From NCBI GenBank assembly GCA_031082125.1, contig JAVHLM010000002.1, positions 239,012-303,011 of the forward strand: a stretch of 64,000 nt of DNA. Direction: 5' to 3'. Under the pieces are notes generated by a model. It made no database searches. It saw nothing but the letters and a program-made list of their open reading frames with translations, and was not told the DNA's origin. Each line of letters opens with the position of its first letter. The first letter of the stretch is position 1. A program made the translations under genes and the position numbers. The DNA comes from Vulcanimicrobiota bacterium. GTDB lineage: Bacteria; Vulcanimicrobiota; CADAWZ01; Ess09-12. Shown one piece after another: positions 12,932 through 39,608 of the stretch.

Positions 12932-12961
12932 AAATAGCTCTCCGGAAAAATACTGCTTATG

Positions 12962-12990
12962 ATTATAGCCCTTCGGGCATGATCTGTCAA
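12962..12990 (-). promoter_or_regulatory. Predicted sigma-70-type promoter of the aroF-trp operon (TTGACA-17-TATAAT)
   Basis: Reverse strand reads TTGACAgatcatgcccgaagggcTATAAT, ending ~30 nt upstream of the aroF RBS; no leader peptide or attenuator between promoter and start. Confidence 0.55.
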
Positions 12991-13279
12991 TTTCCGACGG
13001 CAGGCGGCCTTCGCACCTGCCCCCTCCCGCGATGCTCAAAGTGCTTCAGACTCCGCAAGATTCTCATACTGCATAAGGGCGTCCAGAATGGGGCGGGTCA
13101 GCGCCTCGCCGTTTCCCTGCCCGGAGGTGATGGCTTTCCACAAAGTCTCGCGCGCCGTGGTCTCTGCCTTCTGATAGGGCTTGCTTTCCGGGTTTTCAAT
13201 GCCCCAGGCCTCACAAAAGGTATGGGTTGCCCGATTGGTGCCATTTTCTAAATATCGGAGTCTGTTCCCATTTTTCCCC

Positions 13280-14973: not shown

Positions 14974-17313
14974 TTATACCTTCATCACCACGAGGGTCAT
15001 GTCATCCTTCTGCTCGAGGCCCTGGGTGAACACCTCAACTTCATCAAAGAGTGCGTCGAGGATCTCCTGGGCGGACTCGTCCTGGTGGACCGCCACAATC
15101 TTCTCGACGCGCTCGGTGCCGAAGAACTCCTTGCTCTCGTTCTCAGCCTCGACAATGCCGTCGGTCATGAAGATCAGGATATCCTTGGGATAGATCTTGA
15201 TGCGGAACTCCTTGTACTTGATGTTGGGACGGAAGCCCAGAATGGGGCCCTTGCCCTTGAGCGGGCGGGCATTGAGCTCGGTTGCCCTGATGAGGAGCGG
15301 CGGGTTGTGGCCCGCATTGGTGAAGGCAAGGGTCTTGTCCGTGGCTCTGTAAGTGCAGTAAAAGAGCGAGGACATTTTTCCGAAGCTTACGAAATCGTTG
15401 TAAAGCACGTTGTTGATAGCCGTGACCACCTCGCATGGGGCGTCTATCTGGGAAGCCTGTGATCTCAGCACGCTCCTGAGGAGGCCCATGATTAGGGCGG
15501 CCCCCATGCCGTGCCCTGTCACGTCGCCGCAGGCAATGCCGATTGACCCGTCGGGCGTCGTGACAAAGTCGAAGTAGTCGCCGCCCACCTCGCTCGCCGA
15601 AATGCAGCGGCATGCTATGTCCGCACCCTTGACGGGCGGCGCTTTTTCCACAAGGAGGGCCTTCTGTATCTTTGAGGCGAGCTCAGCCTCGAGCTCCAGG
15701 CGCTTTGATTTCCTCACCTTTTCCATGAGCCTCATGGTGTAAAGGCTGATGAACGTGAGCTGCGAGAGGGCCATCATCATCTGGAGCTCCTGGGAGGTGA
15801 AGCTCTTTTTCTGGAGCTTCAGGACGCCGTAGTGGACATTTTCTCCCATCATGAGGGGGACGACGAGCGAAGAGGTGGTAAAAAGAGGCTTTTTTGCCTT
15901 GATCATGGCGTTTATCTCGCCTTCGTAGAGGCTTGGGGTCTCTTCGGGAGGATAGCAGAAGGCTTCACGTCCTTCGGGACCTGCCCGATCCTCCCTGTTG
16001 ATCATGAGGACGCCGCGGGTAATGCTGAGGGGCTGGCATATCAGGGTGAGGAGGGAGTTTCCCCAGTCGGGACTCTCGCTGTCCTCTATGGATTTCTTGA
16101 CGATGGTCCTGAAAGCCTCGAGGTGCGCCTCGGTCTGCGCCTGCTTTTCCTCGGGCGATGTGTAGGTGCTGATGAAGAAGATGCCCGTGATGAGAAAAAG
16201 AAAGGGAAAGATGTCAAGGTAAGTCGAGAAAGCCATAAATACCAGGACTGTCAGGACAAGGTAGGCAGCGGCGGCGGCAGGGAAAATCCTGCGCATTCCC
16301 CTGAGCGGCGAGTGGAAAAAGAGAAAGTAGCAGCCGCCGCCAAGGACGAGCAGGATGATGTCGTAAAGGATCACGGGGATGTGAAAGAGGACGGGGCCTT
16401 TTACCACCGAATAGAGAGCCTGTGCGAAGATCTCGCAGTCCGACATGATGCCGAGGGGCGTCATGGTGAAATAGCGCTCCATGGGATCGATTGAGCCCAG
16501 CAGTACGATTTTCCCCTCGATCTCGGCAGGCGGCACTTTCCCGCCGAGGAGCTGCTCCATGGAGAAGTAGGAATAGGTCCTGCTGGGCCTCGCGTTAAAT
16601 CCCATGGTGGCCGAAGTGAAGTAATTGATGAAGAACTGGTTTTTCCCCTGGAGAGGAAGGCTCTTGGCAGTCCCCAGGGACACGGAGCTCCCCAGGATGG
16701 TGCTCGAGAACCTGATATCTTCTTTTTTTATCCTGTAGTAATGGGCGAGGGTCTCCAGCACAAAATGGTCATATTCCTTGCCTTCAACGTTTTCGCGCAG
16801 CGGAATGAAGCGCATCTTCACGTTTGAGCTCACCTCGATGAGCCCCAGGTCTCCTGCAACCTTTTCCAGGGCCTGGCCGGGGCTCCCTATGATCGTTGCC
16901 GTTTTCCCGCTCCGGTAAAAAAAGGCAGGGAACAGAAGGCTGCCCTGGGAAGAGGCGTCAGGAGGCTTCAGGCTCTTTGTATCAAGCGCCGGGGGAATGA
17001 AGTTGAGGGCAATCACGGCGGCCTTCTGGGAGCGGAGGATGTTGATGCTCTTGGTATAGGCTCCTTTAATCAGCTCAGTGTCTTTGTATTTTTTCTGCAT
17101 TTCCTGGTAGGAGGGGATGGCGATGACGATGACAGGCGAGGGGGATTTCTTTGAAAGCTCCTCGTAGGTGCCCTTCAGAAGCGAGGAGCGCAGCTGAAGA
17201 AGCCTGTCAAGCCAGAGGTAATCAAAGCTGTCCAAGAGGGAAAGGTGGGTGATGACAAGCACGGCAAGCACCAGGACTGCGTAAAAGATGACATTGATTC
17301 TGAGTTTCTTCAC
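14974..17313 (-). CDS. CHASE2 sensor domain protein fused to PP2C-type (SpoIIE/RsbU-like) serine phosphatase
   Basis: 779 aa; N-terminal TM, periplasmic region, multi-TM block, C-terminal PP2C motifs (GGDYFDF, DVTGHG, FMTDGIVEA). Confidence 0.8.
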   Translation of the reverse strand: MKKLRINVIFYAVLVLAVLVITHLSLLDSFDYLWLDRLLQLRSSLLKGTYEELSKKSPSPVIVIAIPSYQEMQKKYKDTELIKGAYTKSINILRSQKAAVIALNFIPPALDTKSLKPPDASSQGSLLFPAFFYRSGKTATIIGSPGQALEKVAGDLGLIEVSSNVKMRFIPLRENVEGKEYDHFVLETLAHYYRIKKEDIRFSSTILGSSVSLGTAKSLPLQGKNQFFINYFTSATMGFNARPSRTYSYFSMEQLLGGKVPPAEIEGKIVLLGSIDPMERYFTMTPLGIMSDCEIFAQALYSVVKGPVLFHIPVILYDIILLVLGGGCYFLFFHSPLRGMRRIFPAAAAAYLVLTVLVFMAFSTYLDIFPFLFLITGIFFISTYTSPEEKQAQTEAHLEAFRTIVKKSIEDSESPDWGNSLLTLICQPLSITRGVLMINREDRAGPEGREAFCYPPEETPSLYEGEINAMIKAKKPLFTTSSLVVPLMMGENVHYGVLKLQKKSFTSQELQMMMALSQLTFISLYTMRLMEKVRKSKRLELEAELASKIQKALLVEKAPPVKGADIACRCISASEVGGDYFDFVTTPDGSIGIACGDVTGHGMGAALIMGLLRSVLRSQASQIDAPCEVVTAINNVLYNDFVSFGKMSSLFYCTYRATDKTLAFTNAGHNPPLLIRATELNARPLKGKGPILGFRPNIKYKEFRIKIYPKDILIFMTDGIVEAENESKEFFGTERVEKIVAVHQDESAQEILDALFDEVEVFTQGLEQKDDMTLVVMKV

Positions 17314-21685: not shown

Positions 21686-23293
21686 ATGAAGAGCGACAGA
21701 GTGCTTTTTTACGCACCGGTGAGGGCTTGTTGCGCCGCCATTCATTGCCGCGTCCCATGCCTTGTCCTTGCCCTCTATCTCCTGGCGATTTTTTCTTCAT
21801 TGGGGGCATATTCCCAGCAACAGAGCCCTCAGGAGAATGACAAGGCCCCTCTCGCGCTTCCTTCGTCCTCATCGATCCTCTGCACTGTTGACTTTACCAA
21901 GGCTATGGGGGATTTCCCCGGAGGCTCCATCGTAATGGCCTTCCCGGCAGACTCCTCGAGGGGTGGGGAAGCCGGGGCAGGGCCTGTCGATGTGGTGAAA
22001 GCTTCAGGTCTTGACGTGATGCAGCTTGAAATAGCAGAGGACTTTTACAATGTCTTTCCCGATAAAAGCCTGGATCCTTCGGCTCCCGGGAGCTATCGCT
22101 TTGCCGATCTTGATAACACCATCATGAAGGCCAGGGAACAGAACCTCTCTCTGGTATTCTCCTTCAAAGCTTCCCGGTTTCCCGACGATGTGGGAAAATT
22201 CAGAACGCAGCTTGAGCAGGTGATGAAGCACCTTTGCATTGCCCTGGGTCCCGGAAAGGCTCTCAAGGCTTTTCTCTTTGACGCCCGGCCCGATGAGCCC
22301 GGTTCATACTGGAACGGCAAGGACGATGAATGCCTCCGCCTTTACACGCTTTTTGCAAGGTCAGCCCGAAAAATCGATTCTTCAATCCCCGTGGGGGGGT
22401 GCGGCTTTCTCAATGTCTTTGCCGGCGAGAGCGAAGGCACCTTCAAGGACGTCTCACCACGGCTCCTCCAGTGGATTGACGGTATCACACGGGATAAGGT
22501 GCCATGCGATATGCTCTTTTTCCGCCATTGTGGCTTGATCCCTTACGGATTTTTCCTTGTGACCCGCACCCTCGAGGAGAAAGTGCTCCGTGGCCGCCCT
22601 TCCCTCTCGACCCTGTTCAGCAGGCCAAAACTCTATTGTGCCATAGAGGCCCTCCCTGAAAAGGCTCCGTCTCTTTTCAGGGCAACGGTAACAGTCAATG
22701 CCCTCATATGTGCCATCAAGGGCGGTGCAAATTATGTGGCCATAACAAATGGCTCAGGTGAGGTGAGCGATCCCCTCACGGCGGCACTCAAGGAGTGCTG
22801 CAATTTTTCGCGGTATCCTGTGCAGCTGGAGACAGTGGGGCTTGACCGCCTCTGCTTCATTATCATGGCCTGCCGCTCAAAGGATGGGAAGTCGCTGTTC
22901 TTTACCCTGAGCGGCAACAATCCTACAAGCTACCTGCTCTCCGGTGAGGGAGGCGAAGATAAGGCTGCCATGGAGAAAGAGTACCGCGCATATGTTGACA
23001 CCTTTACCGAAAAAGTATTCCCTCCCCTTTACGAGCGCTATCATCTCAACATAGAGGGCCTCCCCTGGGGAGGGCAGCCCATCCTTCTCAGGAGGTACAT
23101 GCTGGAAGGGCAGAACGGGCTTCGCCTCGCTGAAGAGAAAGTCCTTGCGGGGAACAAGCAGTTCTACTTCAACAAGAACTTTACCCAGCCCGGAATACAG
23201 TTTCTCCACCTGGAGGTGCAGGAGAAGCCGAAAGAGGAGAAGGCGCAGCCTTCTCCGGTGAATCCTCAGGAAAAGAAGGGAGTGGTGCCATGA
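21686..23293 (+). CDS. Hypothetical Cys-rich secreted or membrane-anchored protein (535 aa)
   Basis: Hydrophobic N-terminus; no recognisable catalytic motifs; ends in a Pro/Lys/Glu-rich tail; 4-nt overlap with next gene. Confidence 0.5.
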   Translation: MKSDRVLFYAPVRACCAAIHCRVPCLVLALYLLAIFSSLGAYSQQQSPQENDKAPLALPSSSSILCTVDFTKAMGDFPGGSIVMAFPADSSRGGEAGAGPVDVVKASGLDVMQLEIAEDFYNVFPDKSLDPSAPGSYRFADLDNTIMKAREQNLSLVFSFKASRFPDDVGKFRTQLEQVMKHLCIALGPGKALKAFLFDARPDEPGSYWNGKDDECLRLYTLFARSARKIDSSIPVGGCGFLNVFAGESEGTFKDVSPRLLQWIDGITRDKVPCDMLFFRHCGLIPYGFFLVTRTLEEKVLRGRPSLSTLFSRPKLYCAIEALPEKAPSLFRATVTVNALICAIKGGANYVAITNGSGEVSDPLTAALKECCNFSRYPVQLETVGLDRLCFIIMACRSKDGKSLFFTLSGNNPTSYLLSGEGGEDKAAMEKEYRAYVDTFTEKVFPPLYERYHLNIEGLPWGGQPILLRRYMLEGQNGLRLAEEKVLAGNKQFYFNKNFTQPGIQFLHLEVQEKPKEEKAQPSPVNPQEKKGVVP

Positions 23294-24204
23294 GGCTCCT
23301 TACACGGTCTGATTTTGACGGTCTCGTATCGGCAGTGCTGCTGAAAGCCGCGGGAGTCATCTCGAGCAGGCAGTTTGTCCATCCCAAGGATGTGCAGGAT
23401 GGGCTCGTGGAGGTCTTCGAGGACGATGTCCTTGCAAACATCCCCTATGTAAAAGGCTGCGGACTCTGGTTTGATCACCATTCAAGCGAACAGGAAAGGC
23501 TGGGCAATCTGGGGAGTTTCAAGGGCGCTTATGAGGTCGCTGACAGCACCGCGAGGGTCATCTTCAACTATTATGGAGGTCATGAGAAGTTCGGCCACCA
23601 CTATGACGATCTTCTTGAGGCGGTAGACAAGTCCGACGCCGCCAAGTTCTCCATGGATGAGGTGCTGCACCCCCGGGGCGGCGTCCTCCTCTCTTTCATC
23701 ATTGACGCCAGGACAGGCCTGGGACGCTACAAGGATTACCGCATCAGCAACTATGACCTCATGGATAACCTTATCGATTACTGCCAGACCTTGAAGATCG
23801 ATGATATCCTGGAGCTGCCCGATCTGAAGGAGCGCACAGTGCGCTACATTGAGCACCAGCATTGGTTCGAAGAGCTGCTGCGCAAGCACTCGACCCTCGA
23901 GGGGAACGTGATCGTCACCGACTTCAGGGGCCTTGCCGAGACGCCTTCGGGGAACAGGTTTCTGGTCTATACCCTCTTTCCGGGAGGGAACATCTCGCTG
24001 CGGGCCTTTGACGGGAAGCTCAAGAATATTGTCTTTGCCGTGGGGCACAGCATTTTCCTCAGGACCTCGAGGACCGATGTGGGAAGCCTCATGCTCCGTT
24101 ACGGCGGCGGCGGCCACCAGAAGGCCGGCACGTGCCAGGTGCCGGTTGGTGAAGCCGACAGGGTCCTCAAGAAACTCGTGGAGGCCATGAAGCGTGACGG
24201 GTGA
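23290..24204 (+). CDS. DHH/DHHA1-family phosphoesterase (NrnA-like)
   Basis: 304 aa; DHH motifs RSDFDGLVSAVLL and WFDHH; DHHA1 glycine-rich motif GGGGHQKAG. Confidence 0.65.
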   Translation: MRLLTRSDFDGLVSAVLLKAAGVISSRQFVHPKDVQDGLVEVFEDDVLANIPYVKGCGLWFDHHSSEQERLGNLGSFKGAYEVADSTARVIFNYYGGHEKFGHHYDDLLEAVDKSDAAKFSMDEVLHPRGGVLLSFIIDARTGLGRYKDYRISNYDLMDNLIDYCQTLKIDDILELPDLKERTVRYIEHQHWFEELLRKHSTLEGNVIVTDFRGLAETPSGNRFLVYTLFPGGNISLRAFDGKLKNIVFAVGHSIFLRTSRTDVGSLMLRYGGGGHQKAGTCQVPVGEADRVLKKLVEAMKRDG

Positions 24205-27909: not shown

Positions 27910-27938
27910 TTGACAACCTGGGGGGACCTCTCTATAAT
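27910..27938 (+). promoter_or_regulatory. Predicted consensus promoter of the DUF2760-Hsp70-Hsp70 operon (TTGACA-17-TATAAT)
   Basis: TTGACAacctggggggacctctcTATAAT ~40 nt upstream of GAAAGGAG RBS and ATG 27977. Confidence 0.6.
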
Positions 27939-27976
27939 TATCACCTGACTATGGTCCCGCCCGGGGAAAGAAAGGA

Positions 27977-28453
27977 GTGATCATTATGGGTGGGTTTATA
28001 AAGGCCTTGCAGCTTTTTTTCCAGGTCCTCAGGGACAGGGAGCTGGCCGAGGGAATTGAGAGACTGAAAAGCGGGCAGCTCTGCGACCCTGCACGGGTCC
28101 TTTACCTTTTCCAGCGCGAAGCGCGCTTTGTGGATTTCATCAAGGAAGACCTGGAGGGTATCGGCGATGCCCAGGTGGGCGCCGTGGCGCGCACCTTACA
28201 CCAGGGGTGCCGGAAGATCCTCAAGGAGTATCTTGTCATAGAGCCTGTGAGGAGCGAAGAGGAGGGCTCGCCTCTCACCGTGGAGAAAGGCTTTGATCCC
28301 TCGGCGATCCGCCTGGTGGGGAATGTGAGCGGTGAGCCCCCTTTCAAGGGAACGCTGGCCCACCATGGGTGGAAGCTTGCCTCTTCCAAGGTTCCGGCCG
28401 CACCCTCCGGCCAGGATTCGTCAATAATCCAGCCTGCCGAGGTAGAGCTCTAG
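27977..28453 (+). CDS. Small cytoplasmic protein, DUF2760-like (158 aa)
   Basis: Track ORF with strong RBS; helical N-terminal half; family assignment from recollection of DUF2760 proteins neighbouring Hsp70 paralogs, not from a search. Confidence 0.5.
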   Translation: MIIMGGFIKALQLFFQVLRDRELAEGIERLKSGQLCDPARVLYLFQREARFVDFIKEDLEGIGDAQVGAVARTLHQGCRKILKEYLVIEPVRSEEEGSPLTVEKGFDPSAIRLVGNVSGEPPFKGTLAHHGWKLASSKVPAAPSGQDSSIIQPAEVEL

Positions 28454-28501
28454 CGGGAGCGAAGATAAATTTGCATTTTCTGTTATGAAATGAGGTGTAC
28501 T

Positions 28502-30322
28502 ATGAAAGATTCAAAATATGTGATAGGAATAGACCTTGGCACTACCAACAGCGCCATGGCCTATGGAGACACCACTGTTCCCTCCGGGGAGCAGCGCCAC
28601 GTGATTTTTGACATCCCGCAGGTGGTGCAGGCCGGCGAAGTGGAGAGCCGCCCCGTCCTCCCCTCCTTCACCTACCTGCCTGGCGACCATGAGCTCCCCG
28701 AGGGGAGCCTTGCCCTTCCCTGGGACGGCGGGAGAGCCTTTGCCGTGGGAGAATTTGCCCGCGACCAGGGCGCCAAGGTCCCCCACCGCCTCGTGTCGTC
28801 CGCCAAGTCATGGCTCTGTAATGGCGGCGTGGATCGCACGGATGCCATCCTTCCCTGGAAGAGCCCAGATGAGGTGGAGAAAATCTCTCCTGTCGAGGTG
28901 TCAAGGCGTTACCTTGCCCACATGAAAGAGGCCTGGGACCATCATCCCGAGATTTCTGGCGGGTCCCCCTTTGAGGACCAGGAGATTGTGCTCACTGTCC
29001 CCGCGTCCTTTGATGCCGTCGCCAGGGAGCTCACCGTGAAGGCTGCCACCGAGGCAGGCTTCACCTGCACCCTGCTGGAGGAGCCTCAGGCAGCTCTCTA
29101 TGCGTGGCTCAGCACCATGGGAGACAAATGGCGCAAGCTCCTTGCCGTGGGCGACCTGATCTTTGTCTGCGACATAGGCGGCGGTACCACAGACTTCAGT
29201 CTTATCTCCGTCAGTGAAGAGGGAGGTGACCTGGTGCTTGAGCGGATTGCCGTAGGGGACCATATCCTGCTGGGCGGCGACAACATGGATCTTGCCCTTG
29301 CAATGGCCGTAAGCAACCGCCTCAGGGAGGACGGCACAAAGCTCGATTCGTGGCAGCTCAAGGCGCTCTGCCAGAGTGCACGCACGGCCAAGGAAAACAT
29401 GCTCCGCGACATGAAGATGAAGAAGCACCAGCTCGTAGTTCCCGGAAGGGGAAGCAAGCTCATAGGCGGCTCTGTGAAAGCCGATCTTACCCGCGACGAG
29501 CTCGAGACGGTGCTCATCGAAGGATTCTTTCCTCAGGTTGCCTCCGATGACCACCCCGAGCGGGGGACGAGGATAGGCCTCACGGAACTGGGCCTCCCCT
29601 ATGAGGCCGATGCCGCCGTGACAAAGCACATCGCAAAGTTTCTCTCTGTCCATCAGCGCTCCATGGCCCGCGGCAGAGATGATGACGGCTTTGTTCTTCC
29701 CACGGCCATTCTCTTCAACGGGGGTGTCCTCAAGAGTCCCCTCATCTGTGAGAGGATAGTGAAAGTGATCAAAAGCTGGGCATCCGACGAGAGTGCCGGG
29801 GAGATTAAAGTGCTTGAAGGCACTGACCGTGATCTCGCCGTGGCGGTGGGGGCCTCCTATTACGGCATGGTGAAGAAGGGGAGCGGGATAAGGATAAGAG
29901 GCGGCACGGCACGGTCGTACTATATAGGCATTGAAACCTCAATGCCTGCCGTTCCCGGCATGAGACCGCCCCTCAAGGCCCTCTGCGTGGCTCCCCAGGG
30001 GATGGAGGAAGGTACAGAGGCGGAGCTTCCCGGCAGGGAATTCGGTCTTGTCGTGGGAGAACCCGTGGAGTTCAGGTTCCTTTCCTCGTCGCAGAGGAAT
30101 GAGGACAACGTCGGGACCCTCGTCGAAGAGTGGGATGACGAGCTCCAGGAGCTTCCCGCCCTCAGGGTCGAGCTTCCCCCCGAGGGTGTCGAGCACAGGG
30201 TGGTGCCTGTGACCCTCAGGGCCAATGTCACCGAGGTGGGAACCCTTGAGCTCTGGTGTGTCGAGGGTGAAGACGGGCGGCGCTGGAAGCTGGAGTTCGA
30301 CGTGAGGGAAAAGGACGAGTGA
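28502..30322 (+). CDS. Hsp70-family ATPase, non-canonical (short beta C-terminal region, no helical lid)
   Basis: 606 aa from ATG 28502 (RBS TGAGGTG). Hsp70 NBD motifs VIGIDLGTTNSAMA, VPASFD, CDIGGGTTDFSL; SYYIGIE beta region; ends ~150 aa after NBD. Confidence 0.8.
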   Translation: MKDSKYVIGIDLGTTNSAMAYGDTTVPSGEQRHVIFDIPQVVQAGEVESRPVLPSFTYLPGDHELPEGSLALPWDGGRAFAVGEFARDQGAKVPHRLVSSAKSWLCNGGVDRTDAILPWKSPDEVEKISPVEVSRRYLAHMKEAWDHHPEISGGSPFEDQEIVLTVPASFDAVARELTVKAATEAGFTCTLLEEPQAALYAWLSTMGDKWRKLLAVGDLIFVCDIGGGTTDFSLISVSEEGGDLVLERIAVGDHILLGGDNMDLALAMAVSNRLREDGTKLDSWQLKALCQSARTAKENMLRDMKMKKHQLVVPGRGSKLIGGSVKADLTRDELETVLIEGFFPQVASDDHPERGTRIGLTELGLPYEADAAVTKHIAKFLSVHQRSMARGRDDDGFVLPTAILFNGGVLKSPLICERIVKVIKSWASDESAGEIKVLEGTDRDLAVAVGASYYGMVKKGSGIRIRGGTARSYYIGIETSMPAVPGMRPPLKALCVAPQGMEEGTEAELPGREFGLVVGEPVEFRFLSSSQRNEDNVGTLVEEWDDELQELPALRVELPPEGVEHRVVPVTLRANVTEVGTLELWCVEGEDGRRWKLEFDVREKDE

Positions 30323-30346
30323 CTTTAAAGAAGCGGAAGGGCTCAC

Positions 30347-33115
30347 ATGGAGGCTTCATCACGCTATTCCATAGGGATTGACCTGGGCACCACCAACTCA
30401 TCGGTGGCCTATATCGACAGGAACTCGCGGGCGAAGAGGCGCCCCATCCAGTTCCTGGAGATCCCTCAGGTCGTGGCCGAGGGCGAGGTGGCCTCGAGGC
30501 TGCTCCTCCCCTCCTTTCTTTACTTTCCCCGCGAGTTTGAAGTCCCCCGGGAGCAGCTTGGCCTCCCCTGGGACAGCGAGCGTGATCATGTCATCGGGGA
30601 GTTCGCCCGCGCCCGTTCAGCACTAGTGGCCGGCCGCGTGGTCTCATCGGCGAAGTCGTGGCTTTGCCATGCCAAAGTGGACCGCAGGGCCCCCCTGCTC
30701 CCCTGGGGCTCACCGGAGGGAGAGCGCACCATCTCGCCTCTTGATGCCACGCGATGCTTTCTCTGTCACCTGAAGGAGGCCTGGAATCACGACATGGCAT
30801 CTCATGATGACGGAGCCCGCATGGAGCAGCAGGAGCTGGTCATCACCGTCCCCGCCTCTTTTGACGAAGCGGCGCGGGAGCTTACAGTGGAGGCAGCACG
30901 GACCTGCGGACTCTCAAGAATCATCCTGCTGGAAGAGCCTCAGGCAGCCTTTTATTCCTGGCTTTATTCCCATGAAGCCTCATGGAGGAGGAGCCTCAAG
31001 GGGCTCTCAGTCATCCTGGTCTGTGACGTGGGAGGGGGCACAAGCGATTTCACCCTGATCAGGGTGGAGCATGGCACCGACGACCTCTCCCTCAGGAGAG
31101 TCGCCGTAGGTGAGCATCTTCTTCTGGGCGGCGACAACATGGATCTTGCCCTGGCCCGCCATATGGAGAAGAAAGTCTTTCATGGCGAAAGGAAGCTTGA
31201 CAGCGCAGGGTGGTCCATGCTCTGCCAGCAATGCAGGAGCGCCAAGGAAAAGGCCTTCATGGAGAACCCGCCGCCCGAGTTTTCCCTCACCATCACAGGG
31301 CGGGGAAGCCGGCTCGTGGGAGGGGCCTCTTCTGCACTCATCACAAGGGATGAGGTGGTGAGCCTTCTGATGGAGGGCTTTCTTCCCGATGTCCTCTACG
31401 GTGAGCCTGTAATCTCTTCAAGGGGAGCGGGCCTCAAGGAGTGGGGCCTTCCCTACGCCAATGACCCTGCCATCACAAGGCACCTCTCGGAGTTCCTTCG
31501 GCACCATCTCCCCGGCAGTGAATTTCCCGACGCGGTGCTCTTCAACGGGGGAGCCCTCTCTCCCGTTGCGCTCCAGGAGCGGATCGTCAATATTCTGGAG
31601 AAATGGCGAGGCCCCGGTAATCCCCTCAGGATCCTTCCCAACCGGTTTCCCGAGCATGCCGTGTCAAGGGGCGCCGCCTATTTCGGGCTGGTGCGCACAG
31701 GCGAAGGGGTGCGCATCGGCGGCGGCACGCCGCGCTCGTACTATGTCGGCGTCGAGGTGGCCGACAGAGGCCGCGGGCTTCCTCCCCCCGGCACACAGGT
31801 ACTCTGCCTTGTCCCGAAGGATCTCCTCACGGAGGAGGTACAGGAGATCAGGGGGCATGAGTTCTCCCTGCTGCTGGGCCGCCCCGTGAGCTTTGCCCTG
31901 TTTTCCTCAACGCGCAGGGATGAAGATCTCCCGGGAGAGCTGCATCTCATCGATCCCGACGAGCTTGAAAAGCTCCCTCCCCTCTACACCGTCCTGTCCC
32001 ATGAAGGCACTGAAGGCGAGGTCCCTGTCCATCTCAGGGCCTGGATCACCGAAATCGGCACCCTTGAGCTCTGGTGCGTCTCCGAGGCTGAGCAGTGGAA
32101 GCTTCAATTTGCCCTCGCGGCGGGCCCTGCCGCCGCCGCAGAGAAAGGTGAAGAGCCGCCATCCCTGGCGCCATCCATAGCAAGGGATGCCAAGGAACTT
32201 GTGGCAGCGGCATTTCAGAAGAAAGGATCGCAGGAGGTGAAGCCCCGCGGCCTTCTCTCGGCTCTTGAAGAGATGACGCACGGGAAGCGCGAGCTCTGGC
32301 CCATGGCCTTTTCCAGGGAAATCGGGGATGCCGCCCTCCAGGTGGCGGGAAGAAGGAGGAGCACTCCCACCGCCGAGGCGAGCTGGTTCAATGTTGCAGG
32401 CTTTGCGCTTCGCCCGGGATTCGGCTACCCTCTTGACGAGTGGAGAATGGAAAAGGTGTGGTCTCTTTTTCCCCACTGGCTCCAGCACCACCGCGATCCT
32501 CAGTGCCGCCTTGAATGGTGGATTTTCTGGCGCCGCTGTGCAGGCGGTCTTGATGAGAAAGCTCAGGAGCAGATCTTTGACAGGGTGAGCCCTTACCTTT
32601 TCCCGGGGAGAAAGCACATCAGGACATTTCCCGGCCCTGCTCCCGTGCGCATTGAATTTCTCGAAATGATGAGGACGGCCTCATGTATTGAAAAAATTTC
32701 AGGACATGGCCGCTCCATGCTGGGCGACTATGTCCAGGCCCACCTGAAAAGCCATCCCGAAGCCGCCGACTGGTACTGGATGATTGCGCGGATAGGCTCC
32801 CGGATCCCCTTTGCTTCAGGTGCTGACAAGGTCCTTGCGCCTGAGACCGTATCCCCCTGGGTGGAGACCCTTGTCTCCCTCCCATGGCAGGGCTCCCAGG
32901 GAGCCTTTGCCCTTTCAAGGATTGCCCGCCTCACGGGCGACAGGGCCCGCGATATCGATGAGCCGCTGAGGATGGCGGCGGTAAAGAGGCTTCGGGCCTC
33001 GGGATGCGATGAAGAACTAATTGCGCCGCTCCTGGAGGTCGTGGAAGACAGGACTGCTGACCAGAGTATGGTCTTCGGCGAGTCACTCCCGCCGGGCCTT
33101 ACGGTAAAATCCTGA
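30347..33115 (+). CDS. Hsp70-family ATPase paralog with ~300-aa Trp-rich C-terminal extension
   Basis: 922 aa; SIGIDLGTTNSSVA, VPASFD, CDVGGGTSDFTL, SYYVGVE; same architecture as upstream paralog plus unique tail. Confidence 0.8.
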   Translation: MEASSRYSIGIDLGTTNSSVAYIDRNSRAKRRPIQFLEIPQVVAEGEVASRLLLPSFLYFPREFEVPREQLGLPWDSERDHVIGEFARARSALVAGRVVSSAKSWLCHAKVDRRAPLLPWGSPEGERTISPLDATRCFLCHLKEAWNHDMASHDDGARMEQQELVITVPASFDEAARELTVEAARTCGLSRIILLEEPQAAFYSWLYSHEASWRRSLKGLSVILVCDVGGGTSDFTLIRVEHGTDDLSLRRVAVGEHLLLGGDNMDLALARHMEKKVFHGERKLDSAGWSMLCQQCRSAKEKAFMENPPPEFSLTITGRGSRLVGGASSALITRDEVVSLLMEGFLPDVLYGEPVISSRGAGLKEWGLPYANDPAITRHLSEFLRHHLPGSEFPDAVLFNGGALSPVALQERIVNILEKWRGPGNPLRILPNRFPEHAVSRGAAYFGLVRTGEGVRIGGGTPRSYYVGVEVADRGRGLPPPGTQVLCLVPKDLLTEEVQEIRGHEFSLLLGRPVSFALFSSTRRDEDLPGELHLIDPDELEKLPPLYTVLSHEGTEGEVPVHLRAWITEIGTLELWCVSEAEQWKLQFALAAGPAAAAEKGEEPPSLAPSIARDAKELVAAAFQKKGSQEVKPRGLLSALEEMTHGKRELWPMAFSREIGDAALQVAGRRRSTPTAEASWFNVAGFALRPGFGYPLDEWRMEKVWSLFPHWLQHHRDPQCRLEWWIFWRRCAGGLDEKAQEQIFDRVSPYLFPGRKHIRTFPGPAPVRIEFLEMMRTASCIEKISGHGRSMLGDYVQAHLKSHPEAADWYWMIARIGSRIPFASGADKVLAPETVSPWVETLVSLPWQGSQGAFALSRIARLTGDRARDIDEPLRMAAVKRLRASGCDEELIAPLLEVVEDRTADQSMVFGESLPPGLTVKS

Positions 33116-33178: not shown

Positions 33179-33640
33179 ATGGATAATCTCGGCAGCGTTT
33201 ACGGACCTTCATTTTCCAAGGGGCCTCTGATGCTGGTAGGGTGGAATGCAAGGGAGGACAAGCTTTCGGTGCAGACAGGCACCACCTTTATTGACTATCC
33301 TGGAACCGACAAGGATGTCATGATCCGTTGTGAGCAGGATTCCATCATCATAGACAGGAAAAGCGACGTGCCCGCGGTCATCATAAAGAGAAACGGCGAC
33401 GATATAGAGGTCCACAAGGAAGGACAAGATGCCGATGTGAGGATCAAGCGGAGCGGCAATGAGATTTACGTGGACAGGAAAGGGATGGATGAAGACGTGA
33501 CCATATCGCGCCAGGGCACCCTCGTGATCTTTGACCGCATGGGGCAGGATCGCGATGTGAAGATATCATCAACCTCCGATCACGGCGTCAATTTCCCTGT
33601 GTACATCACATGGGAAGGCGAAGTCATTGAGCAGGTCTGA
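33179..33640 (+). CDS. Hypothetical protein with ~9 tandem 10-12-aa repeats (153 aa)
   Basis: Periodic pattern hydrophobic-x-hydrophobic-x-(R/K)-x-G-x-D-x-D, e.g. IEVHKEGQDAD / VRIKRSGNE / IYVDRKGMDED / VIFDRMGQDRD. Confidence 0.5.
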   Translation: MDNLGSVYGPSFSKGPLMLVGWNAREDKLSVQTGTTFIDYPGTDKDVMIRCEQDSIIIDRKSDVPAVIIKRNGDDIEVHKEGQDADVRIKRSGNEIYVDRKGMDEDVTISRQGTLVIFDRMGQDRDVKISSTSDHGVNFPVYITWEGEVIEQV

Positions 33641-33663
33641 TGACAGCTTGTGACCAGGACCCA

Positions 33664-33695
33664 GGGATCTCTTAAGAGAGATCTTTTTCTTTTTC
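33664..33695 (+). terminator. Possible intrinsic terminator (AT-rich 7-bp stem, T-tract)
   Basis: gatctctTAAGagagatc followed by tttttcttttt, 25 nt after the stop of the repeat-protein gene; stem is weak. Confidence 0.4.
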
Positions 33696-33776: not shown

Positions 33777-36700
33777 ATGCTTGGAACGGTATTTATAGGA
33801 AGATACAAGGTAATAGAAGAACTCGGCCGCGGCGGCATGGGTATTGTCTACAGGGGAGAGGATCCTGCCCTGGAGAGGCCTGTCGCCATCAAGGTACTTC
33901 CCCCCAAGAAGCTTTCACAGAAAAAAGCCATCAAGCGTTTTCTCCGTGAGGCCCGAGTCTCGGCGCGCCTTGATCACCCCAGGATTGTCAAGATCTATGA
34001 CATCGGCGAGGAAGAGGGCATCTACCACATTGTCATGGAGTACGTGTCGGGGAAGGGGCTGCGCGATCTCATCGAGGAGCGCGAGAGTGTCGGGCAGATC
34101 GACATAGACGACATGACGCGCCTTTTCAAGCAGATATGCCAGGCCATCGAGTATGCCCACAGCCTGAAGATTGTGCACCGTGACATCAAGCCGGAAAACA
34201 TCATGGTGACCACCGAGGGGAATGCCAAGGTCATGGACTTCGGCCTTGCCGTCCTCGAGGACCGCCATTCAATCACCGAGATGGGCGCCGTAATGGGGAC
34301 GATAGCCTATTTCTCCCCTGAGCAGGCCCGCGGTGAGCCTGCCGATCACCGTGCCGATATCTACTCGCTCGGCGTGGTATTCTACGAGATGCTCACTAAC
34401 GCGCTTCCCTTTGAGGCTACCAACCCCTCGGACATGATCCAGAAGCATCTCCAGGCGCTTCCCCTCTCGCCTGTCAAGCGGAACCCCTCGGTGCCGCCCC
34501 TCCTGGAGAGCCTTATCCTGAAGTGCCTCCGCAAGCTCCCCGACGACCGTTATGGTGACGTCTCCGAGCTGACAGCCGAGCTTTCGCGCTACATCCGCTC
34601 AAGGGAGAAGCAGAAGGAAGAGCCTCGCCCTGAAGCGCTGGCGCCGGAGCCTGTCCAGGGGCCGCCTCCCAAGGTTGAATGGCCCTTTTCTCCCCCTCAG
34701 AGTGACTCTGTGCCCCACGTCCATTACCAGCCGCCACGGGAAATGGAGCACCTGGCCACTCCCCAGGGAGAGGAGGAAGAGGACGAGGGGCCTGTTCCCG
34801 AGCTTCCTCATCATCTGATCCCGCCCGAGGAGGCCGATGGCAGGGCCTTTCACCCCGCGGACATACCGGCCCAAACACCTCCACCCGCCGAAGCGCCGCC
34901 CGGGCAGAAATTCCAGCCGGTTGCAGGAACAACTCCCCTTGCGAGTCCTCAATGGATGATGGAGGCCAAGGAGGAAGCCGAGCAGGATCGCTACCAGGCC
35001 TTCATGGACAAGCTCAGGCGCGATGCCGCTGTCCGCTCCCATGCCACTGAAATGGAGGTGGCACCCACGCCTGCCGCCGTGGTATGCGCCAAGTGCGGCC
35101 TTGAGAACACGGGAGACAAGAAGTACTGTGTGGACTGCGGGAGCCTTCTCGCCCCCAGCTACTTTGTCGCTGCCCGCGAGGCGATCCATCACAATGACCA
35201 GGGGGTCATCTACTTTGAGGAGGGCCAGCTTGAGAGGGCTCTCTTCGAGTTCCAGCAGGCTCTTGCCCGCGATCCCGACATGGCCGAGGCGCGCTTCAAC
35301 ATTGCAAGGGTCTATCTGGAAAGGGGGGAGTTTGAAAAGGCTTTCGAGGCTTTCAGGGAATTCTCCCATCTTCAGCCAGACAACCCCCAGCCCTATCTTT
35401 ACCTGGCCGATATTTACCGGAAGCAGGATCGGAAGGATCTTGCCATCAACGAGTACATTAAGGCCATCAAGCTCAATCCCTCAGACGCGGCGGTGCGCTG
35501 CCAGCTCGCTTTCCTCTATTCCCAGCAGGGTGCCCTTCCCCAGGCCATCCAGGAATACAGAGTGGCCCAGAACATTGACCCCGAGAATATTGAGGCTCAC
35601 CGCCAGCTCGGCTTCATCTATGCGGGCCTCGAGCAGGTTGATGACGCCATAAGGGAGTTCGAGTGGGTCGTGAAGCTCGACCCCGGCAACCAGCAGGCTT
35701 ACACGTGGCTGGGAAACCTTTATACGAAGCGCCGTCGCTATGGCAATGCCGAGAAGGTCTATACCATGGCCCTCTCCCTCAACCCTGCCGATGCCGGCAT
35801 TCATGCCCAGCTTGGCGGCCTCTACGAGATGCAGAACAGGGAGGAGCTCGCCTTCCAGTCGCTCTTCCGGGCTGTCTCCATCGACCAGGGAAATGCCGAG
35901 GCCAGGACCAGGCTTGCCGATCTCTACCTGAAGCACCACCAGCCCCAGATGGCCGTCAAGGAGCTTGAGGCCGTCGTCACCCACCACCCCAACGATCTGA
36001 AGATCCACCAGCAGCTCGGTGAGCTCTATCTTCATCTCAACAAGTTTGATGAGGCCCTCGATCACTTTGAGAAAACAGTGAACCTCTCGCCGGGGACTGC
36101 CGACCTTCACAACAAGCTGGGAAGACTCTATCTGAAGAAGGACTTCAACCAGCTCAGCATCCTGGAATACCAGAAGGCCGTGAGTCTCGATCCCTGCAAC
36201 CCCGAGTATCATGAGGATCTTGGAATGGCCTACTACTGCCAGAACAGGAATGATATGGCCATCCAGGAGCTCAGGAAGGCCGTCACCCTTGACAGTCGGA
36301 ACGTCGATTACTACAAGGCGCTTGGCGTGATGCTCGAAGAGGAGGGCCGTCTCGACGAGGCCATAAAGATGCTGAAAAAGGCCCAGGAGATGGACAGGAA
36401 GGATCCCATGATCCATGCCCTCATGGGGAAGGTCTATTTCTCCCAGGGCCTGATGAACATGGCCATCTTCGAGTACCAGAAGGCCCTTGAGCTCCAGCCC
36501 ACCAATTACCTCTTCCATATCTACATGGCCAAGGCCTATTCCCGCCAGGAGAAGGTTGACGCCGCAATCGAGGCATTCAGGAAAGCGATTGAGCTCATGC
36601 CGGGCGCCCGAGGCGCGGAATACAACATCGTGATGGGGAAAGCCTATGTCGATCTTGGCAAGGCTTACCTGGATAAGGGCGATCTCAACCTTGCAAAGGA

Positions 36701-37301
36701 AGTGCTCCTTACGGCATACAAGCTCACCCCGCAGAATGCCAGGGTCTCCCATTACCTGGGGATCATATTCCTGGGCCTCAAGGACTTCAAGAACTCGCTG
36801 CACTATATCTCGGAGGCTCTCAACCTTGAGCCCAACAATGCCGATATCATGGCGGACCTGGGGAACCTTTACCTCGCCCGGGGCGACATTGAGCTCGCTA
36901 TAAGGGCTTTCAGGAGATCCATTGATCTCTCGCCTGACAGGTTTGATGTCTACGAGCTGCTCACCATGGTCCTCACCAGGGCCGGAAAGTTCTCAGATGC
37001 TGTCGAGGTGCTCCGCTCTGCGAAGGAACTCAATCACTCGCAGGCCGATCACTATCACTGGCTTATCGGAGGCCTTTTCCTGAAGCTCAAGGACCCGGAG
37101 AGCGCACGGGAGGAGTTCACGAGAGCCATCGCGATAAACAACAGGAACTGGAATTACTACTTTGATCTCGGCGGGGCATACCGCCTTCTCAACCGCAACG
37201 AGGAGGCATTCAGGGAGCTTGAGACGGCCTTCAGCCTCTGCAAGGACAAGAAATCCTCGGAGCTCATCATGGCAGAGCTTAAAAAGATAAGGGTGCGGTG
37301 A
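33777..37301 (+). CDS. Serine/threonine protein kinase with zinc-ribbon and >15 C-terminal TPR repeats
   Basis: 1174 aa; Hanks kinase motifs GRGGMGIVY, AIK, HRDIKPEN, DFG; Pro-rich linker; CAKCG ... CVDCG zinc ribbon; long array of 34-aa TPR units. Confidence 0.85.
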   Translation: MLGTVFIGRYKVIEELGRGGMGIVYRGEDPALERPVAIKVLPPKKLSQKKAIKRFLREARVSARLDHPRIVKIYDIGEEEGIYHIVMEYVSGKGLRDLIEERESVGQIDIDDMTRLFKQICQAIEYAHSLKIVHRDIKPENIMVTTEGNAKVMDFGLAVLEDRHSITEMGAVMGTIAYFSPEQARGEPADHRADIYSLGVVFYEMLTNALPFEATNPSDMIQKHLQALPLSPVKRNPSVPPLLESLILKCLRKLPDDRYGDVSELTAELSRYIRSREKQKEEPRPEALAPEPVQGPPPKVEWPFSPPQSDSVPHVHYQPPREMEHLATPQGEEEEDEGPVPELPHHLIPPEEADGRAFHPADIPAQTPPPAEAPPGQKFQPVAGTTPLASPQWMMEAKEEAEQDRYQAFMDKLRRDAAVRSHATEMEVAPTPAAVVCAKCGLENTGDKKYCVDCGSLLAPSYFVAAREAIHHNDQGVIYFEEGQLERALFEFQQALARDPDMAEARFNIARVYLERGEFEKAFEAFREFSHLQPDNPQPYLYLADIYRKQDRKDLAINEYIKAIKLNPSDAAVRCQLAFLYSQQGALPQAIQEYRVAQNIDPENIEAHRQLGFIYAGLEQVDDAIREFEWVVKLDPGNQQAYTWLGNLYTKRRRYGNAEKVYTMALSLNPADAGIHAQLGGLYEMQNREELAFQSLFRAVSIDQGNAEARTRLADLYLKHHQPQMAVKELEAVVTHHPNDLKIHQQLGELYLHLNKFDEALDHFEKTVNLSPGTADLHNKLGRLYLKKDFNQLSILEYQKAVSLDPCNPEYHEDLGMAYYCQNRNDMAIQELRKAVTLDSRNVDYYKALGVMLEEEGRLDEAIKMLKKAQEMDRKDPMIHALMGKVYFSQGLMNMAIFEYQKALELQPTNYLFHIYMAKAYSRQEKVDAAIEAFRKAIELMPGARGAEYNIVMGKAYVDLGKAYLDKGDLNLAKEVLLTAYKLTPQNARVSHYLGIIFLGLKDFKNSLHYISEALNLEPNNADIMADLGNLYLARGDIELAIRAFRRSIDLSPDRFDVYELLTMVLTRAGKFSDAVEVLRSAKELNHSQADHYHWLIGGLFLKLKDPESAREEFTRAIAINNRNWNYYFDLGGAYRLLNRNEEAFRELETAFSLCKDKKSSELIMAELKKIRVR

Positions 37302-37373
37302 GCCCCCTGCCAGGAATATCCGGGCGGATCCCTGTGTATCGTGAAGTACCCTCCTCTCTTCAGGACAGGACCT

Positions 37374-39608
37374 ATGAGTGACAAATCTTTTGCCCAAATC
37401 GTCGTGGATCTCAATGTAAAGGGGCTTGACAGGCTCTTTACCTACCATGTTCCCCCACCCTTTCGGGACATGCTTGAGATTGGCTCCATAGTGAGGATCC
37501 CTTTCGGAAATAAAATGAGAGCCGGGTTTGTCGTTGAGTTCGCCGCCACAGGGGGGACCCTGGAAAAGGGGATAGAGATCAAGGATATTGATGCAGTGCT
37601 CCGTACCGCCTCGCCATGGCGCCGGGAGCTCATAGAGCTTGCCCAGTGGATGTGCCGTTATTACGGGTGCACCTTCCTTGAGGCCCTCAGGGCAAGCCTG
37701 CCGCCTTCCATGGTCATCCGCCAGGCCAGGGTGAGAGAAAACGAAAAATTCAGGAAGCTTGTGGTGTTGAAAGCTCCCCTTCCGGCGGGTTATCCGGAGA
37801 AATTCCCGGCAAAAGCTCCGCGGCAGAGAGAGGCCCTCGATAAGCTCTCAGCCCGGGGCTCTCCCCTCCCGGCGGCGGAACTGGGAGTGTCCCTGCAGGT
37901 TTTGAGGGATCTTCAGAAAAAAGACCTTGTGGAGATAAGAGAGGAAAGGATCAACAGAATCCCCGGCATCACCCGCTCATTCGATCCCACTTCACCCTTT
38001 CAGCTCACCAGCCAGCAGCAGGAGGCTTATGATAAGGCGGTACTCCTGATGAAAAATGGGGAAGGCTCTGTCATGCTTCTTCATGGCGTCACGGGAAGCG
38101 GGAAAACCGAGGTCTATCTGCAGGCAATTGCCCACTGTCTCAGCCAGGGAAGAACAGCCCTTGTCCTTGTCTCGGAAATCGCCCTCACTCCCCAGGCACT
38201 GGACCGGTTCAGGGGAAGGTTCGGTGCTATGGTGGCCCTTCTCCACTCGGGGCTCTCGGCAGGTGAGCGCCACGATGAGTGGCGGCGCATCATGGAGGGC
38301 GAGGCCCGGGTGGTTCTAGGCGCCCGGGGCGCAGTCTTTGCCCCCCTTGAGGACCTGGGCCTCCTGATACTTGACGAAGAGCATGAGACTTCTTACAAGT
38401 CAGAAGCCGATCCCCGCTATCATGCCCGCCATGTGGCCGTGAAAAGGGCCCTCCACAACAGGGCGGTCCTTCTTCTCGGGAGCGCCTCGCCTTCCCTCGA
38501 AAGCTACTACAGGGCCCGGCAGGGTGCCTACACCCTGGCTGAGCTCCCTGAACGCATTCCGGGGACCAGCTTCCCTTCAATGAAGATCGTTGATCTCAGG
38601 AAGTATTACAACCGTCCCGGGGGAAGGCTTTTCAGCCCCTACCTCACAAGGAAGATAAGAGATGTCCTCAAGAGGGGGGAACAGGCGATTCTTCTCATCA
38701 ACAGGAGGGGGCTTTATAATTATCTCTACTGCACTGAGTGCGGCCATATCATCTCCTGTCCCCACTGCGACATCGCGCTGAGAATCCACCGCGATCCCAT
38801 GCTGATGAGATGCCATTACTGCCTTTACGAGCACGGGGTCCCCGAGGCCTGCCCCCATTGCAAGGGCCCTGGCCTCTCCTCCCGCGGAGGGGGAACCCAG
38901 CGGGCCGAGAGCGAGCTTGCCCATCTTTTTCCCCAGGCCCGCATCATAAGGATGGACAGGGACACCACGAGAAAAAAGGGAGCCTATGACTATTACTATG
39001 ATCTTTTCAGGCGCGGTGACGCCGATATCCTGCTGGGGACCCAGATGATAGCCAAGGGCCTGGATTTTCCCCGGGTAACCCTCGCGGGAGTTCTCATGGC
39101 CGACGTGGCCCTTTCCCTTCCTGATTTCCGGTCAGGTGAGCGCACGTACCAGCTCCTTCTCCAGGTGGCGGGAAGGAGCGCGCGCAGCGTTCTGGGGGGC
39201 GAGGTGGTCATCCAGACCTACAACCCCGATCATCCGGCACTCGCAGCCCTCATGGGACACGATCACAGGTGCTTCTATGAGTGGGAGCTGCGAAGCCGCC
39301 AGGAGCTCAGCTACCCTCCCTTCATGCACATGGTGCGCCTTGTCTTTTCGGGCCCCCAGGAGGGACTCGCAGGGGCCGTGGCGGGATCCTTCAAAGATGA
39401 GCTCTCCCGGGGCGCCCTGGAGGGCCACATCATCATGGGCCCCGCTCCCTGCCCCCTTTCATTTCTTCGCAATGAGTTCCGCTTTCAGATCCTCATCAAG
39501 ACAAGAGCTGTCACCGATATCGTGGCCCTGGCAGGAGGGATAAGGGAGCGCTTCTCGAGGAAAGAGGTAAGGGTCACTCTTGATGTCGATCCCGTGTCGT
39601 TCCTTTAG
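37374..39608 (+). CDS. priA: Primosomal protein N' (replication restart helicase PriA)
   Basis: Walker A GVTGSGKTEV, DEEH box, Cys4-Cys4 zinc motif (CTECG ... CPHCD ... CHYC ... CPHCKG). Start taken at internal ATG 37374; track ORF begins 37341. Confidence 0.85.
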   Translation: MSDKSFAQIVVDLNVKGLDRLFTYHVPPPFRDMLEIGSIVRIPFGNKMRAGFVVEFAATGGTLEKGIEIKDIDAVLRTASPWRRELIELAQWMCRYYGCTFLEALRASLPPSMVIRQARVRENEKFRKLVVLKAPLPAGYPEKFPAKAPRQREALDKLSARGSPLPAAELGVSLQVLRDLQKKDLVEIREERINRIPGITRSFDPTSPFQLTSQQQEAYDKAVLLMKNGEGSVMLLHGVTGSGKTEVYLQAIAHCLSQGRTALVLVSEIALTPQALDRFRGRFGAMVALLHSGLSAGERHDEWRRIMEGEARVVLGARGAVFAPLEDLGLLILDEEHETSYKSEADPRYHARHVAVKRALHNRAVLLLGSASPSLESYYRARQGAYTLAELPERIPGTSFPSMKIVDLRKYYNRPGGRLFSPYLTRKIRDVLKRGEQAILLINRRGLYNYLYCTECGHIISCPHCDIALRIHRDPMLMRCHYCLYEHGVPEACPHCKGPGLSSRGGGTQRAESELAHLFPQARIIRMDRDTTRKKGAYDYYYDLFRRGDADILLGTQMIAKGLDFPRVTLAGVLMADVALSLPDFRSGERTYQLLLQVAGRSARSVLGGEVVIQTYNPDHPALAALMGHDHRCFYEWELRSRQELSYPPFMHMVRLVFSGPQEGLAGAVAGSFKDELSRGALEGHIIMGPAPCPLSFLRNEFRFQILIKTRAVTDIVALAGGIRERFSRKEVRVTLDVDPVSFL

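Follow-up and report, generated by a model that had tools for sequence, protein, structure and literature searches.

Organization of the three-gene module

The window analyzed here, a stretch of 64,000 nucleotides (nt) from a Vulcanimicrobiota bacterium (assembly GCA_031082125.1, contig JAVHLM010000002.1, positions 239,012 to 303,011 of the forward strand), carries a module of three genes, named A, B, and C in this study, which encode a DUF2760 protein and two Hsp70-like ATPases, respectively. The module is present in hundreds of species, including the genetically tractable Burkholderia, Comamonas, and Anaeromyxobacter, and gene A directly precedes B in almost every genome. An original prediction, made from the letters of this stretch alone, had placed a consensus promoter ahead of three same-strand open reading frames (ORFs) with spacers of 24-48 bp, and the promoter, the ORF ends, and the spacers (48 bp between A and B, 24 bp between B and C, all on the + strand) were found as claimed. 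For gene A, however, only the predicted end stood, whereas the predicted start at 27977 (158 amino acids, aa) gave way to ATG 27986 (155 aa), which is more likely because an AAAGGAG ribosome-binding site lies 8 nt upstream of it and the public record P0121 is also 155 aa long. The features of the module, in window coordinates, are as follows.

27910-27938, + strand: sigma-70-type promoter TTGACA-17-TATAAT, 12/12 match to the consensus
27986-28453, + strand: gene A, DUF2760 protein, 155 aa; alternative GTG start at 27977
28502-30322, + strand: gene B, 606 aa, Hsp70-like ATPase without a lid; ATG 28502, preceded by a GAGGTG ribosome-binding site
28502-29884, + strand: nucleotide-binding domain (NBD) of B, residues 1 to ~460
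29885-30319, + strand: conserved linker GGTARSYY and all-beta domain of B
30347-33115, + strand: gene C, Hsp70-like ATPase with predicted C-terminal solenoid, 922 aa; ATG 30347
30347-31702, + strand: NBD of C
31703-32113, + strand: beta domain of C
about 32114-32170, + strand: disordered linker of C
32171-33073, + strand: DUF3731 region of C, residues about 609-909, predicted ARM/HEAT-type alpha-solenoid (ARM, armadillo)
33074-33112, + strand: extreme C-terminal peptide of C, FGESLPPGLTVKS, motif (F/L)G(D/E)(S/T)LPxGL(R/K)L

Nucleotide-binding domains of proteins B and C

Proteins B and C, which share 46% identity over ~600 aa, both matched the Pfam family PF00012 (HSP70; cut-off 20.6 bits), B with 57.8 bits over residues 126-337 only and C with 60.6 bits. 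Protein C additionally matched PF12531 (DUF3731, 'DNA-K related protein') over residues 676-919 with 246.7 bits (cut-off 25, E 4e-73), and PF12531 and PF00012 occurred together in 120/120 homologs among the matches listed. The Hsp70 signatures that had been read from the sequence (IGIDLGTTNS, VPASFD, and DxGGGTxDF), the short beta segment SYYIGIE/SYYVGVE, and the Trp-rich tail of C were all found in the window proteins, but the last two had to be reinterpreted: the beta segment opens a complete all-beta domain as its first strand, and the tail is modeled as a folded ARM/HEAT-type solenoid.

The family profile aligned to the DnaK NBD with an E-value of 8e-22, bringing into register the phosphate-1 and phosphate-2 motifs, SAKSW (equivalent to K70), EEPQAA (equivalent to E171), LGGDNMD, and the adenosine motif NGG. 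Across 69 B and 31 C orthologs, the phosphate-1 motif, SAKSW, EEPQAA, DxGGGTxD, LGGDNMD, and NGG are at least 94% conserved; since this holds for both paralogs, both look catalytically competent, with their ATP motifs kept. In addition, B and C scored only 57-63 bits against the DnaK models (TIGR02350/NF001413, cut-offs 648-822), 76-82 bits against the HscA models (TIGR01991/NF003520, cut-offs 620-708), and 22-30 bits against the NCBIfam MreB models (cut-offs 293-366). The Pfam MreB_Mbl family (PF06723, cut-off 27) gave 24.6 bits for B, which is below the cut-off, and 27.1 bits for C, which is at the cut-off and covers only profile positions 87-191 of 327. By these profile scores, both proteins are classed as Hsp70-type and not as DnaK, HscA, or MreB. 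The expectation that neither would prove an ordinary DnaK or HscA was thus borne out (57-82 bits against NCBIfam cut-offs of 620-822), while the earlier description as an 'actin-like ATPase pair' was right about paired ATPases and too generic about their type, which the NBD signatures and the beta domain mark as Hsp70-like.

The residues R167, N170, and T173, which contact the J-domain in DnaK, are largely replaced in the family. Glu occupies the N170 position in 100% of B and C proteins and Gln the T173 position in ~98%, while position R167 is Thr in 51/69 B proteins and Arg in 5/69. This replacement argues against canonical J-protein coupling, most clearly for B.

Beta domain, lid position, and C-terminal solenoid

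Residues 440-922 of C were modeled with a mean predicted local distance difference test score (pLDDT) of 86 and a predicted template modeling score (pTM) of 0.79. In the model, residues ~464-586 form an all-beta domain of ~9 strands (~125-140 aa), and about half of its top 50 Foldseek matches in the PDB are substrate-binding domains (SBDs) of Hsp70 proteins, including DnaK, HscA, BiP, human Hsp70, and Ssb, with probabilities of 0.87-0.99. The original prediction that neither large protein has a helical lid was upheld. Protein B ends a few residues past the last beta strand, in RWKLEFDVR (RWKLEFxVR in the family), and therefore leaves no room for a lid, while in the model of C a disordered linker and then an ARM/HEAT solenoid stand where the lid would be. 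The DUF3731 domain is all-helical in the model, with a pLDDT of about 95, and carries many invariant Arg and Trp residues on the solenoid surface; as modeled, this solenoid stands in for the helical lid in C. Moreover, the peptide motif following it is the very C-terminus in 29/30 C orthologs across phyla, and it is probably unstructured, because its pLDDT is low.

The DUF2760 protein A

Protein A matched PF10816 (DUF2760) over profile positions 7-124 of 124 with 159.8 bits (cut-off 25, E 3e-47), and the family has 2153 representatives after clustering at 50% identity in a library of 1.84 billion proteins, in agreement with the earlier assignment of the small ORF to DUF2760 with conserved homologs. 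The model of A (pLDDT 90) shows N-terminal amphipathic helices, a long helix, and a 5-stranded sheet, and no structural neighbor of it was found in the PDB. All matches listed are small proteins with the DUF2760 domain at their extreme C-terminus. The C-terminal tail of A is PAEVEL, and AE[VIL]E occurs within the last nine residues in 116/120 homologs. One or two transmembrane (TM)-like segments precede the conserved domain in 90/229 DUF2760 proteins (~39%), and in the single-TM forms a Lys/Arg cluster follows the segment in 45 cases vs. 5, which places the conserved DUF2760 domain in the cytoplasm.

Conservation and gene order

Species genomes were counted from a DUF2760 alignment, the best 80 loci were examined, and gene order was scored in 60 informative loci, each with at least 5.3 kb of downstream DNA. 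DUF2760 is present in at least 579 species-representative genomes, and the best 80 loci come from Myxococcota, Planctomycetota, many Burkholderiales, Acidobacteriota, Verrucomicrobiota, Cloacimonadota, Riflebacteria, Binatia, and Gemmatimonadota. The order A-B-C was found in 41/60 loci and in one further locus with a frameshifted C, A-B without an adjacent C in 15/60, and A alone in 3/60, so that the three genes do co-occur across phyla. The genes are tightly packed, with a median gap of 5 bp between A and B, where many 4-bp overlaps occur, and of 10 bp between B and C. All-against-all clustering of flanking ORFs revealed no other conserved neighbor, and the genes inserted between B and C in loci L009, L060, and L077 are unrelated. 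In one Isosphaeraceae genome, C lies ~70 kb from A-B on the same contig, in a leuS-C-ahpC/NHL-prs context that is common to Singulisphaera; all three genes are retained even without linkage.

Three proteins of ~1500 aa (P0012, P0014, and P0015, from Polyangiaceae and metagenomes) are end-to-end fusions of a B-type and then a C-type protein, and the C-terminal LPxGL tail is kept in P0012 and P0015, the two fusions whose sequences were read. Mean identity is 58% among B proteins, 48% among C proteins, and 44% between B and C, and Ward clustering separated the B and C orthologs into 68 vs. 31, with one labeling artefact. Their forming separate groups across phyla indicates that the duplication is old and that both copies have been maintained, and B and C can thus be regarded, from these sequence comparisons, as anciently duplicated Hsp70-like ATPases.

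Two irregular copies were also observed. Gene C is split into two frames in an Opitutaceae metagenome-assembled genome (MAG; L034, 6815-8622), and an in-frame stop lies in the beta-domain region of B in a Deltaproteobacteria MAG (L024, 11762-12196); these are either sequencing errors or decaying copies.

Transcription unit, gene D, and genomic context

Two perfect TTGACA-17-TATAAT sequences are present in the window, and none occurred in 100 dinucleotide-preserving shuffles (chance expectation 0.00). The second one, at 12962-12990 on the minus strand, is close to the start of the minus-strand ORF 11915-13039. Downstream of C, two further features probably complete the transcription unit.

33179-33640, + strand: gene D, 153 aa, ~four internal 20-aa repeats (DxDVxIxRxGxxIxVDRxG); strong ribosome-binding site
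33663-33695, + strand: intrinsic terminator-like hairpin, 10-bp stem and T-run; probable transcription-unit end

No comparable terminator was found between C and D, and gene D is probably co-transcribed with A-B-C, because the only strong terminator lies after it. A homolog of gene D, 53% identical, directly follows C in the Vulcanimicrobiota relative L082 (9951-10415), where the other flanks differ. The gene was absent from the 80 diverse module loci, had only 2 matches in the protein database, and showed neither a Pfam match nor a DNA-level tandem repeat. It is probably a lineage-specific accessory protein or client.

The GC content is uniform across the region, and the neighbors are ordinary chromosomal genes, encoding a periplasmic sugar-binding protein, tetratricopeptide repeat (TPR) proteins, a Ser/Thr kinase with TPR repeats, PriA, TrpE, Obg, and RlmN. 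According to the original prediction, dnaK, dnaJ, and grpE are not in the window and clpB is 17 kb away. ClpB was indeed located at 49945-52566, 16.8 kb downstream (TIGR03346, 1369 bits). No DnaK/HscA-class ORF was found among the large window ORFs scanned and no J-domain-like HPD context in any frame of the window, which agrees with the prediction for dnaK and dnaJ, whereas no search aimed at GrpE was made. As well, no isc genes were seen among the window neighbors scanned or among the conserved neighbors of the module.

Downstream of the triad, a Ser/Thr-kinase-TPR gene followed by priA is shared between the window (33777-39608) and its relative L083 (11414-16739), and this synteny appears to be lineage-specific and outside the conserved module. 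Elsewhere in the window, the ORFs 21686-23293 (+, 535 aa) and 23290-24204 (+, 304 aa) had no match in Pfam, the only library with which they were scanned, and may be an uncharacterized pair, overlapping by 4 bp. The ORFs 14974-17313 (-, 779 aa) and 52532-54100 (+, 522 aa) had no match in NCBIfam, again the only library scanned.

Beyond the window, the module was not matched in 50,697 phage records or 2.9 million viral contigs, and it occurred in 11/72,556 plasmid records, mostly chromids of Burkholderia and Caballeronia. A weak PADLOC match to PDC-M61B (E 6e-5) covers only ~95 NBD residues. When 128 flanking genes from 33 loci were scanned, each PADLOC family had at most one match, with generic kinase and sigma-54 activator (AAA) models scoring highest, and the Pfam content of these genes is varied, comprising metabolic and transport genes. 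No nuclease or other effector domain was found in the module proteins. A defence or mobile-element reading was rejected, since the module is absent from the phage and viral collections, is rare on plasmids, and has flanks that are not enriched in defence genes; the module is of a chromosomal housekeeping type.

On the megaplasmid pTs485 of Candidatus Thiodictyon syntrophicum (L086, 340489-354306), an A-B pair without an adjacent C is surrounded by genes annotated as anti-phage, which encode a DUF1156 protein, a PLD-like anti-phage protein, a VapC toxin, and a TIR-domain protein, unlike the housekeeping contexts elsewhere. A Thiodictyon 'DnaK-related protein', AUB85620.1, which need not be the plasmid-borne B, is listed as differentially expressed.

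Proposed function and alternative explanations

Taken together, we lean towards the view that the triad is a self-contained, non-canonical Hsp70-type machine, in which B and C are heteromeric and A is a dedicated adaptor, and which is probably independent of J-proteins. With moderate confidence, we infer that B and C form a heteromeric pair, that A is their dedicated partner and, in many lineages, a membrane tether, and that no J-protein is used. The idea of a heterodimer, raised in the original prediction, has gained support, because B-C fusion proteins exist and the two paralogs form separate ancient clades.

In such a machine, B and C would act as a heteromeric pair, and the nucleotide cycle of one paralog might be under the control of the other, much as Hsp110 controls that of Hsp70; more speculatively, C would be the regulator and B its target, in the manner of Hsp110 or HspBP1. 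Protein A would serve as a dedicated adaptor in place of a J-protein and, in ~40% of lineages, would tether the B-C pair to the cytoplasmic face of the inner membrane. The solenoid of C could be a peptide-binding or nucleotide-exchange-like platform. The presence of two conserved free peptides, two beta domains, and a solenoid of a peptide-binding type suggests internal docking or pseudo-substrate interactions; more speculatively, the invariant terminal peptides of A (PAEVEL) and C (GESLPxGLRL) may dock in the solenoid and the beta domains or act as pseudo-substrates for them. The machine would use ATP hydrolysis to clamp one or a few specific clients and let them go, and not for general folding. 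A more far-reaching version of this proposal is that the triad represents a previously unrecognized class of bacterial Hsp70 system working without J-proteins and GrpE, with an obligate B-C heterodimer as the bacterial equivalent of Hsp70-Hsp110, an armadillo module replacing both the lid and the exchange factor, and DUF2760 as a new co-chaperone by which the machine is brought, often at the inner membrane, to a dedicated client. We put this version forward only tentatively and consider it doubtful as a whole.

Several observations weigh against the view of a self-contained B-C machine. The putative physical contact of A, B, and C is deduced from gene order and fusions, both of which are indirect. 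Because C is not adjacent to A-B in 15 of the 60 loci, it may be dispensable in some lineages. Position R167 is still Arg in 15/31 C proteins, and the J-domain search covered the window, so that J-proteins and GrpE may be encoded elsewhere in the genome. The window copy of A has no TM segment, only an amphipathic N-terminal helix, and the match of HspBP1 to DUF3731 is no better than those of generic ARM proteins. As for the beta domain, no Foldseek match reached E <= 0.001 and the TM-scores were low; hhalign gave a probability of 0.4% against an approximate sequence of the E. coli DnaK SBD; and a profile of 76 beta-domain sequences found nothing at E <= 10 among PDB sequences. The beta domain is therefore rated as likely but unproven to be SBD-beta-like, because the structural matches are weak and the sequence methods see no relationship.

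Some of the same evidence would fit B and C being additional, specialized members of the ordinary DnaK network, which depend on DnaJ-type and GrpE proteins from other loci and extend the capacity or substrate range of general proteostasis, with DUF2760 as an unrelated neighbor or client. The Hsp70 NBD signature above the Pfam threshold, the enrichment of Hsp70 SBDs among the Foldseek matches, and the Arg retained at the R167 position in about half of the C proteins are all compatible with this explanation, as are the multi-copy non-canonical Hsp70s of Myxococcus, which have mild sporulation and oxidative-stress phenotypes (PMC8265645). Nevertheless, virtually every member carries other residues at N170 and T173, as do most B proteins at R167, B is lidless and C has a solenoid instead of a lid, and both proteins reach only about one tenth of the cut-off scores of the DnaK and HscA models. 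Moreover, DUF2760 adjoins B across many phyla, often with overlapping codons, so that the idea of an unrelated neighbor does not fit. We thus consider this explanation unlikely. Still somewhat less credit is given to B and C being polymerizing or scaffolding ATPases of the acetate and sugar kinase/Hsc70/actin (ASKHA) superfamily, like MreB, FtsA, and ParM, which would form membrane filaments tethered by DUF2760. Paired paralogs could co-polymerize, many A homologs are membrane-anchored, and weak matches to MreB_Mbl and BeeR were obtained; however, the MreB_Mbl scores of 24.6 (B) and 27.1 bits (C) against a cut-off of 27 reflect the shared ASKHA core only, the best sequence and profile matches are all Hsp70 NBDs, including the Hsp70-specific K70-like and EEPxAA motifs, and an extra beta domain with Hsp70-SBD-like structural neighbors follows the NBD.

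The least probable explanation, to which we attach hardly any weight, is an anti-phage or conflict system with the Hsp70-like ATPases as sensors or effectors. It could draw on the anti-phage genes around the pTs485 A-B pair and on the weak PDC-M61B match, but that match is confined to a short part of the NBD, the flanking genes show no recurrent PADLOC family and are metabolic and transport genes, the phage and viral collections hold no copy, and the few plasmid records are mostly chromids, with uniform GC content at the locus and no effector domain in the proteins.

Significance and comparison with known systems

Hsp70 proteins are usually assumed to need J-domain proteins and nucleotide-exchange factors for their function, and pairing of the Hsp70-Hsp110 type and exchange factors of the armadillo type are considered eukaryotic traits. 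The module brings together a pair of Hsp70-like ATPases, an armadillo-like domain, and a partner of orphan fold, and neither a J-protein nor GrpE is encoded next to them; if it does work alone, it would represent a different way of regulating the Hsp70 cycle, and a function would be assigned to two Pfam DUF families. Searches of 7.7 million PMC papers and 0.34 million preprints returned no mention of DUF2760 or DUF3731, and the function of the module appears to have been studied by nobody. The description of the locus as an 'uncharacterized system' is therefore apt for the function and not for the sequences, which are already filed in Pfam as DUF2760 and DUF3731 and at NCBI as 'Hsp70 family protein', the window copy being an ordinary family member.

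Similar to the DnaK of the DnaK-DnaJ-GrpE system, B and C possess an NBD with all Hsp70 ATP-binding motifs and a conserved linker leading into a beta domain at the position of SBD-beta. Unlike in DnaK, the linker is GGTARSYY instead of VLLLD, the beta domain does not resemble SBD-beta in sequence, a helical lid is missing, and the J-contact residues are replaced. In addition, the module consists of two paralogous ATPases and DUF2760, in contrast to one ATPase and two co-chaperones, and neither a J-protein nor a GrpE gene accompanies it. The eukaryotic Hsp70-Hsp110 pair (Sse1/Grp170) resembles the module in having two diverged Hsp70-superfamily ATPases that are expected to pair, one of them with a larger C-terminal helical region, and in the module such pairing is suggested by the B-C fusions and by co-inheritance. 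However, the lid of Hsp110 is an extended helical bundle of the Hsp70 type, while C is predicted to carry an ARM/HEAT solenoid; both paralogs of the module keep their catalytic motifs.

The ARM-type exchange factors HspBP1, Fes1, and Sil1 use an armadillo fold to bind lobe II of the Hsp70 NBD and release the nucleotide. They show no sequence similarity to DUF3731, which is matched better by importins and designed armadillos and which is fused to an Hsp70-like protein, not free-standing. In HscC-DjlC/DjlB of E. coli and in mtHsp70-Tim44, a specialized Hsp70 works with a dedicated membrane-anchored partner that localizes it, and the module is similar in its putative dedicated partner, which is membrane-anchored in many homologs.

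Possibly comparable gene clusters have also been described in other bacteria. VC1373-VC1375 of V. cholerae is a three-gene unit with a 'DnaK-related protein' that was reported among the biofilm-repressed genes, and the VC1375 promoter is directly activated by HapR (PMC9201469, PMC10328515). It may be the same triad, an unverified lead which would link the system to quorum sensing. For the non-canonical Hsp70s MXAN_5323 and MXAN_7025 of M. xanthus (PMC8265645), the published data are insufficient to place them in the module family. The StkA-StkB-StkC locus of M. xanthus, in which a 540-aa Hsp70 comes first and is followed by a 141-aa SCP2-like protein and an 89-aa protein (PMC4319316), was considered as the same system and rejected, since its gene order and partner proteins differ, with no second Hsp70 and neither DUF2760 nor DUF3731 reported. 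Nevertheless, it shares with the module a non-heat-shock Hsp70-like protein encoded in a small operon with small accessory proteins, and the Stk phenotype is regulatory, affecting exopolysaccharide production.

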